Shown here: one piece after another, positions 1 through 1,945 of the stretch | How positions within the stretch are numbered: the first letter of the stretch is position 1 | Layout of the letters: each line of letters starts with the position of its first letter | Origin: Escherichia coli | GTDB taxonomy: Bacteria; Pseudomonadota; Gammaproteobacteria; Enterobacterales; Enterobacteriaceae | NCBI RefSeq assembly: GCF_009931435.1 | Contig: NZ_CP043414.1 | DNA length: 64,000 nucleotides | Direction: 5' to 3' (one strand) | Made by a program: the position numbers and the translations under genes | Notes under the pieces: model-generated | Told to the model about the DNA's origin: nothing | Database searches by the model: none | Seen by the model: the letters and a program-made list of their open reading frames with translations, nothing else

Positions 1-1501
1 GCTGCCGGCCGAGAAGTTCGCCGCACTCAAGCGCGAGCAGGCCCTGCCCCTGGCGATCAACCCGAACAGCGACCAGTACCTGGAAGAGCGTTTGCAGCTG
101 CTGGACGAGCAGTTGGCCACCGTCACCCGCCTGGCCAAGGACAACGAGCTGCCCGATGCCATCCTCACCGAGTCAGGGCTGAAAATCACCCCGCTGGATG
201 CGGCGGTGCCGGATCGGGCGCAGGCGCTGATCGACCAAACCAGCCAGTTACTGCCGCGCATCAAGATCACCGAACTGCTGATGGACGTGGACGACTGGAC
301 GGGCTTCAGCCGCCACTTCACCCACTTGAAGGACGGGGCCGAGGCCAAAGACAGGACGTTGCTGCTGTCCGCAATCCTCGGTGATGCGATCAACCTCGGG
401 CTGACCAAGATGGCCGAGTCGAGCCCCGGCCTGACCTACGCCAAGCTGTCCTGGCTGCAAGCCTGGCACATCCGCGACGAAACCTATTCGGCGGCCTTGG
501 CCGAGCTGGTCAACCACCAGTATCGCCACGCCTTTGCCGCCCACTGGGGCGACGGCACGACCTCATCCTCCGATGGCCAGCGCTTCCGCGCGGGTGGCCG
601 GGGCGAGAGCACCGGGCACGTCAACCCGAAGTACGGTAGCGAGCCGGGACGGCTGTTCTATACCCATATCTCCGACCAGTACGCGCCGTTCAGCACCCGC
701 GTGGTGAATGTCGGCGTCCGCGATTCCACCTATGTGCTCGACGGCCTGCTGTACCACGAGTCCGACCTGCGGATCGAGGAGCACTACACCGACACGGCCG
801 GCTTCACCGATCACGTCTTTGCCCTGATGCACCTGCTAGGCTTCCGCTTCGCGCCGCGCATCCGCGACCTCGGCGAAACCAAGCTCTACATCCCGAAGGG
901 CGATGCCGCCTATGACGCGCTCAAGCCGATGATCGGCGGCACGCTCAACATCAAGCACGTCCGCGCCCATTGGGACGAAATCCTGCGGCTGGCCACCTCG
1001 ATCAAGCAGGGCACGGTGACGGCCTCGCTGATGCTCAGGAAACTCGGCAGCTACCCGCGCCAGAACGGCTTGGCCGTCGCGCTGCGCGAGTTGGGCCGCA
1101 TCGAGCGCACGCTGTTCATCCTCGACTGGCTGCAAAGCGTCGAGCTACGCCGCCGCGTGCATGCCGGGCTGAACAAGGGCGAGGCGCGCAATGCGCTGGC
1201 CCGTGCCGTGTTCTTCAACCGCCTTGGTGAAATCCGTGACCGCAGTTTCGAGCAGCAGCGCTACCGGGCCAGCGGCCTCAACCTGGTGACGGCGGCCATC
1301 GTGCTGTGGAACACGGTCTACCTGGAGCGTGCGGCGCATGCGTTGCGCGGCAATGGTCATGCCGTCGATGACTCGCTATTGCAGTACCTGTCGCCACTCG
1401 GCTGGGAGCACATCAACCTGACCGGTGATTACCTATGGCGCAGCAGCGCCAAGATCGGCGCGGGGAAGTTCAGGCCGCTACGGCCTCTGCAACCGGCTTA
1501 G
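1..1501 (+). CDS. tnpA: Tn3-family (Tn21-type) transposase TnpA, C-terminal ~500 aa; 5' end lies outside the window (reading frame begins at nt 2)
   Basis: Open frame from nt 2 to TAG at 1499-1501; C-terminal residues typical of Tn21/Tn501-group TnpA; stop codon lies inside the 38-bp terminal inverted repeat, as in Tn21. Confidence 0.85.
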
Positions 1502-1534
1502 CGTGCTTTATTTTCCGTTTTCTGAGACGACCCC
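1497..1534. repeat. 38-bp terminal inverted repeat (IRtnp) of a Tn21-family transposon
   Basis: Sequence CTTAGCGTGCTTTATTTTCCGTTTTCTGAGACGACCCC is the reverse complement of the GGGGTCGTCTCAGAAAACGGAAAATAAAGCACGCTAAG-type Tn21 IR and overlaps the tnpA stop. Confidence 0.8.
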
Positions 1535-1564
1535 TATTATGGCGAAGGTATCATTCAGGAAGCG

Positions 1565-1945
1565 TTGATGAAGGATTATCTCTGTAAAAAGTTATTCAAC
1601 CGGCTTTCCGGTACCCTGGTGATCAGAGCGCGCTGCGGCAATAACATTACTGGCCTGGCATGTTGCAATATTCTTTATCCCTCGCCCCGATACAGCGGTC
1701 AGCTGCATATTAAAGAGCTGTATGTTTCTCAGTGCGATCGAAATAAGGGCACGGGTAAAGCGATAATGCGCTTTATAGCCCGGCTTGCGCTTGAACAGGA
1801 ATGCCTTAGCCTTAGCTGGAACGCTGAAAAATCCAACCCCGGCGCTAACCGTTTTTATCAGGCTCTGGGAGGCAGAATAAATGATCATATCGTCAATTAT
1901 TACCTCCACGGGGAGAGCCTGAGCAAACTGGCCTCAGGCATTTGA
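1565..1945 (+). CDS. GNAT-family N-acetyltransferase (ybjA-like), probably 5'-truncated by the Tn21 insertion
   Basis: 126-aa ORF with GNAT motif A (QCDRNKGTGKAIM); shorter than typical GNATs; frame stays open upstream through the IR to 1502; position between Tn21 IRtnp and catA1 as in Tn2670/R100. Confidence 0.6.
   Translation: MMKDYLCKKLFNRLSGTLVIRARCGNNITGLACCNILYPSPRYSGQLHIKELYVSQCDRNKGTGKAIMRFIARLALEQECLSLSWNAEKSNPGANRFYQALGGRINDHIVNYYLHGESLSKLASGI

Follow-up and report, generated by a model that had tools for sequence, protein, structure and literature searches.

The window analyzed here, the whole 64,000-nucleotide stretch of the Escherichia coli contig NZ_CP043414.1, has at its left end the terminus of a transposon, a short acetyltransferase ORF and a chloramphenicol resistance gene. 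It opens within tnpA, the 3′ part of which (1–1501, plus strand) enters from outside the window and encodes a Tn3-family transposase (Pfam DDE_Tnp_Tn3, E 5.3e-157); the ORF listed for it runs from 92 to 1501. The stop codon of tnpA, TAG at 1499–1501, lies inside a 38 bp inverted repeat on the minus strand (1497–1534) that is an exact copy, with 38/38 matching positions, of the IRtnp of Tn21 and equals positions 19693–19730 of R100. This repeat (GGGGTCGTCTCAGAAAACGGAAAATAAAGCACGCTAAG) was found as a single copy in the window, with 0 mismatches, and gave 0 matches in 100 shuffles. The arrangement, in which a gene for a Tn3-type DDE transposase reads toward the repeat and stops within it, is that of a Tn21-subgroup end, as judged from the Pfam match and the ORF. 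Tn21 is a mercury and antibiotic resistance transposon of the Tn3 family that transposes replicatively and duplicates 5 bp of its target. Directly beyond the repeat is the sequence TATTA (1535–1539), followed by an ORF for a GNAT-type acetyltransferase on the plus strand and, convergent with it, by catA1 on the minus strand (2146–2805), a chloramphenicol acetyltransferase gene (Pfam CAT, E 6.7e-115) that is annotated as catA1 in R100. An IS1 on the plus strand (3029–3796), delimited by its terminal repeat at 3029 and by the alignment with the IS1 of R100 to 3796, bounds a Tn9-like passenger segment (1535–3028). Beyond it are genes for a TPR protein (4034–5077) and a tyrosine integrase (5489–6673), and then tRNA-Sec (6973–7067, minus strand).

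The transposase gene that leads into the repeat was found to be of mixed origin. Positions 1–885 of the window had 0 mismatches with the TnAs1/Tn1721-type tnpA of pAPEC-O2-R, and positions 878–1540 had 0 mismatches with Tn21 of R100, the tnpA part of this match being 878–1501. Against Tn21, the window tnpA showed 8–33 mismatches per 100 bp up to position 800 and 6 more in 801–877. The last mismatch with Tn21 is at 877 and the first with the TnAs1-type sequence is at 886, which delimits a crossover interval of 878–885. On these mismatch profiles, the transposon in the window is a Tn1721-type/Tn21 hybrid in which identity to Tn21 does not extend over the full length of tnpA and is confined to 878–1534. 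The exact hybrid tnpA was absent from PLSDB plasmids and from complete RefSeq E. coli genomes, in which the best full-coverage matches were 97.8% and 94.5% identical, respectively.

The GNAT ORF (1565–1945, plus strand) encodes 126 aa from a TTG at 1565 or 125 aa from an ATG at 1568, and ends with TGA at 1943–1945. With the repeat ending at 1534, the ORF starts at +31, in agreement with the first-pass annotation, which had placed a 126-aa GNAT ORF at this short distance from the transposon end. The product matches Pfam PF00583 at 41.7 bits, for which the cut-off (gathering score) is 20.7 bits. The first-pass annotation had also described the frame as open through the whole repeat back to the stop codon of tnpA. 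This had to be corrected, as translation of 1493–1948 revealed a second in-frame stop, TGA at 1523–1525 (plus strand), which lies within the repeat and marks the upstream limit of the GNAT frame. Only from 1526 onward is the frame open, taking in the outer 9 bp of the repeat, TATTA and the gene. Because it is open across the junction of repeat and target (1534/1535), the additional stop codon leaves the conclusion that a gene was interrupted here intact. In the numbering of the 162-aa gene described below, the TTG and the ATG are codons Leu37 and Met38, and together with an AGGAAG at 1557–1562 they form a set of translation signals inside the gene (1557–1570, plus strand) that we consider to be fortuitous and that may act as a start. 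The ATG at 1568 is the start annotated by RefSeq for a 125-aa product (CDS 19764..20141 in R100).

The segment from 1535 to 3100 is 100% identical to 19731–21296 of R100, and 1535–2145 was matched identically on hundreds of plasmids, the first listed of which was R100 of Shigella flexneri. In R100, Tn21 occupies 59–19730 and is flanked by TATTA at 54–58 and at 19731–19735, abutting IRmer and IRtnp, respectively. The left junction reads ...GAAGAACAC TATTA and continues into IRmer as GGGGGCACCTCAG..., and the right junction reads ...GAGACGACCCC and continues into TATTA TGGCGAAGG.... The two features that the first-pass annotation had named as a check on an insertion, a 5 bp target duplication and the 5′ portion of the same gene beyond the other end of the transposon, were both present in R100. 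The duplication was checked in that plasmid; the window shows the right-hand copy at 1535–1539 only, the other end of the element lying outside. When the left flank in R100 was joined to the right flank in the window, minus one TATTA, the resulting 464 bp were colinear with the uninterrupted copy in plasmid R478, with 4 substitutions and no indel, and translated in one open frame (PDEWESMVGIFTEMEEHYYGEGIIQEALMKDY...). The insertion point falls at codons 27/28 of a 162-aa gene (CAC TAT TAT; TAT TA|T). The 5′ stub of this gene, ybjA, in R100 is 58 bp long and has an IS1b to its left that also removed codons 1–8. This combination of IS1b and 58 bp stub beyond the mer end of Tn21 was present in R100 and at least 562 plasmids. 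Among PLSDB plasmid records, 450 contained the right junction (140 bp query) and at least 562 the left junction, compared with 31 for the uninterrupted site.

The uninterrupted gene in R478 extends from an ATG at 3470 or 3476 to 3964, giving a product of 164 or 162 aa that begins M(NM)EVTVELCPPDEWES..., and an AAGGA, an AGGA-type ribosome-binding site, precedes the upstream ATG. A search of the rejoined protein against 5.8 billion proteins identified full-length relatives in Pantoea, Pectobacterium, Rouxiella and metagenomes. These homologues are 161–173 aa long, mostly 171, cover 97–100% of the query at 52–83% identity, and all start with MEV.V..CPP.EWE. In an alignment of 37 sequences, C8, I19, F20, Y27 and G29 were invariant and E12, W13, M16, T21–H26 and Y28 nearly so. 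In the comparison with full-length GNAT proteins that had been proposed earlier, the conserved N-termini of the 171-aa proteins of Pantoea and Pectobacterium align with the residues missing from the window ORF. The same lengths, 162 aa for R478 (164 from the upstream ATG) and mostly 171 aa for the relatives, rule out that homologues are about 126 aa long and share the start of the ORF. The product of the window gene also ends early (...SGI*), 9–12 residues before the 171–173-aa homologues; this was considered as an additional breakpoint and rejected, the intact R478 gene ending likewise.

Together, these data indicate, with a probability that we place at about 95%, that the window ORF is the 3′ remnant of the 162-aa GNAT gene ybjA, split by a single Tn21 insertion at codons 27/28. 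The remnant occupies 1535–1945 (plus strand), comprises codons 27–162 and the stop codon in the 162-aa R478 numbering, is 100% identical to R100 and is colinear with the R478 gene. The suggestion made from the sequence at the outset, that a transposon had entered a longer acetyltransferase gene and left a 3′ fragment, is thus supported by the TATTA duplication and by the rejoined, R478-colinear gene in R100. Tn21 inserted once in ybjA, beside catA1 in an IS1-bounded “Tn9-like” passenger segment, giving rise to Tn2670 of NR1/R100. The window has the right-hand product of that insertion (IRtnp, TATTA and ybjA codons 27–162), which corresponds base for base to R100. Since tnpA in the window is a hybrid, the far end of the element need not be where the 5′ piece of ybjA sits in this genome, and the original Tn21 may have had its left part moved or lost.

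To place the missing residues within the GNAT fold, we used an AlphaFold model of the 162-aa protein (mean pLDDT 90, pTM 0.85) and the closest solved structure, 3i9s, a full-length GNAT protein from a Vibrio cholerae integron cassette (VCH_CASS6). The latter is a distant paralogue of unknown substrate, and the comparison serves only to position the N-terminal 37 residues. The sequence match to 3i9s (E 5.6e-30, 34% identity) is aligned from residue 14, and the whole model superposes on the structure with a TM score of 0.83 over 161 columns. The model consists of beta1 (3–7), alpha1 (10–28) and alpha2 (35–46), followed by beta2–beta4, alpha3, beta5, alpha4 and beta6. Set against an insertion at codons 27/28, it indicates that the window remnant has an incomplete fold lacking beta1 and alpha1 (GNAT motif C), and that a product starting at Met38 would also be without the first turn of alpha2. 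Pfam coverage was tried as a measure of truncation and proved uninformative, as even the 162-aa protein is matched to PF00583 only from position 20 of the profile onward. The acetyl-CoA-binding motif A is retained in the ORF as RNKGTG, between beta4 and alpha3 (pattern Q/R-x-x-G-x-G/A), and its residues R95, G98 and G100 are invariant in the GNAT family alignment. The remnant has been deprived of its own promoter and ribosome-binding site as well as beta1 and alpha1, while the beta4-alpha3 motif is still in place. In GNAT proteins, beta1 is one of the strands in the core of the fold, and a wall of the acceptor site is formed by alpha1 and alpha2. Because of these roles, we infer that the remnant is a non-functional passenger scar and that any product would probably be inactive.

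The RefSeq annotation implies another view, namely that the ORF is an intact small gene of 125/126 aa merely adjoining the transposon end. It has in its favor that a “GNAT family N-acetyltransferase” of 125 aa (WP_000656305.1) is called by PGAP in R100, with a 125-aa counterpart in R478, that at least 1000 contigs carry the 125-aa form and 432 the 162-aa form, and that the PF00583 score of the 125-aa form (41.0 bits) is barely below that of the 162-aa form (42.1 bits). However, the frame in R478 is open for 37 codons further and its upstream ATG follows an AGGA-type ribosome-binding site; these 37 residues are strongly conserved in the 161–173-aa homologues and constitute beta1 and alpha1 of a confident GNAT model. 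In addition, the frame of the window ORF runs unbroken over the junction between repeat and target. We therefore regard an intact small gene as extremely unlikely. We give still less credence, so little that it is close to negligible, to an origin of the junction by deletion or recombination beside the Tn21 end, with no matching 5′ half ever having existed beyond the other end. The ends of Tn21-family elements do often undergo adjacent deletions, the mer end is missing in related chromosomal islands, and tnpA is recombinant here, all of which would fit such an origin. Yet both flanks in R100 carry TATTA and rejoin exactly to the R478 gene with no base missing or added, which is the signature of simple transposition, and the right junction in the window is identical to that of R100.

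A further possibility concerns the fate of the fragment, which might be expressed by read-through from tnpA, be translated from Met38 and have a selectable activity, either acetyl-CoA binding or acetylation. The fragment has the orientation of tnpA, a scan of 1200–2300, which includes the stretch from tnpA to the fragment, gave no terminator-like site, and the AGGAAG lies 5 nt before the ATG at 1568. The fragment keeps motif A and the C-terminal half of the fold, and its sequence identity is 99% or higher in 779 of 787 plasmid records. This high identity is, however, explained by recent descent from one event and by hitch-hiking with catA1 and Tn21, no promoter-like site was found ahead of the ORF, and the predicted loss of beta1 and alpha1 would cost the fold a core strand and one of the walls of its substrate site. 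Read-through transcription and initiation at Met38 are conceivable, and the product would most likely be unstable and inactive; a selectable activity we consider very unlikely. The more particular version, in which a truncated 125-aa GNAT, arising from read-through transcription of the hybrid tnpA and a start at Met38, would provide selectable acetyl-CoA binding or a dominant interaction, is slightly less probable again. If true, it would help explain the persistence of the remnant in hundreds of plasmids and islands.

The preferred reading, a ybjA remnant left by Tn21, has consequences for annotation. In R478, RefSeq/PGAP annotates only a 125-aa GNAT (3587–3964), though the 162/164-aa ORF (3470–3964) is intact. 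The description as an intact GNAT family N-acetyltransferase of 125 aa is an artefact of annotation, and the abundant copies of Tn2670 seem to be the source from which the truncated gene model spread to R478. Thousands of records label the remnant as an intact GNAT of 125 aa, so that automatic annotation is misleading in this instance. The remnant itself carries little scientific weight. The ybjA::Tn21 junction is nevertheless a textbook landmark of the R100 r-determinant and a lineage marker for resistance regions derived from Tn2670, and the exact junction combined with the tnpA crossover at 878–885 could serve as an epidemiological marker of this chromosomal selC resistance island.

The resistance region is part of a chromosomal island at tRNA-Sec (selC). 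Beyond the tRNA gene are yicJ and yicI, and the sequence continues to spoT as the E. coli/Shigella core chromosome, with 97–98.7% identity. For the backbone at 9000–33000, the highest identity to a complete RefSeq E. coli genome was 98.7%, and most of these genomes matched at 97%, which may mean that the source is a Shigella or a divergent E. coli lineage outside that collection. The arrangement IS1-TPR-integrase-selC, without catA1 or the Tn21 part, occurs in many E. coli genomes, whose matches to the window begin at 3028/3029. Because the IS1 in the window departs from that of R100 only distally (5 substitutions, at 3421, 3424, 3715, 3747 and 3785), the sequences suggest that the resistance region may have joined the selC island by recombination in IS1.

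Variants of the region were seen in two other E. coli genomes. In strain 26561 (NZ_CP027118.1), the match begins at window position 1582 and the annotated protein has 136 aa with an unrelated N-terminus (MK..FTSKN..RCTWFDNSS), which indicates a probable further truncation or insertion event in the GNAT remnant of that lineage. The chromosome of strain 400625 (NZ_CM128584.1) has a related selC island with the same IRtnp-ybjA-catA1-IS1 module and a remodelled Tn21 part, which contains a dfrA7 cassette and an IS26-flanked region with blaTEM-1, sul2, aph(3'')-Ib and aph(6)-Id. On the far side of this island no mer genes are annotated and only a partial EAL-domain CDS is left, so this chromosome may have lost the 5′ ybjA stub.

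The ybjA::Tn21 junction beside catA1 is an ordinary feature that has already been described, as part of the Tn2670 region of R100. Tn2670 has the structure IS1-catA1-ybjA-Tn21-IS1 and was first found in R100 (PMC6737455, PMC5034289, PMC8155512). A Tn9-like element with a central segment of 1547 bp was reported to be interrupted by Tn21 in NR1 (PMC12494131), and the passenger segment measured here, 53 bp on the left and 1494 bp on the right (1535–3028), adds up to the same 1547 bp. Tn9 itself (IS1-catA1-IS1, V00622) has the same passenger origin and shares the catA1-proximal part of the GNAT gene, and differs in having a central segment of 1102 bp rather than 1547 bp and no Tn21 (PMC12494131). 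The GNAT gene is also located beside catA1 in R478 and in the chromosome of Atlantibacter hermannii, the proposed source (Moran & Hall 2025, PMC12494131). The origin in A. hermannii rests on that report because our scan of genome contigs with the degenerate pattern PSPRYSGQLHIKELYV did not retrieve the native locus, giving only 2 contigs of Erwinia persicina and 1 of Pantoea; the contigs of a member of the 125-aa cluster named “Atlantibacter hermannii” (P0067) were only Tn21-junction contigs, with no native chromosome among them.

PTncatA1-R478 (NC_005211) carries the same gene, ending in the shared C-terminus ...SKLASGI, with 4 substitutions in the 411 bp common with the window, three of them synonymous and one resulting in N150K. 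In contrast to the window, its 162-aa ORF is complete and preceded by its own ribosome-binding site, Tn21 is absent, and the bounding element is IS26 instead of IS1. The closest known relative of the window is the Tn2670 r-determinant of NR1/R100 (NC_002134 / AP000342), which has the same IRtnp, last 620 bp of tnpA, TATTA, catA1 and IS1. The two differ in that tnpA upstream of 878 is of the Tn1721/TnAs1 type in the window and not of the Tn21 type, and in that the window region lies on the chromosome, in an island beside tRNA-Sec, whereas that of R100 is on an IncF plasmid. With its IS1-bounded catA1 and ybjA segment, which matches R100 exactly, the window has the composition of the Tn2670/Tn9-like composite.
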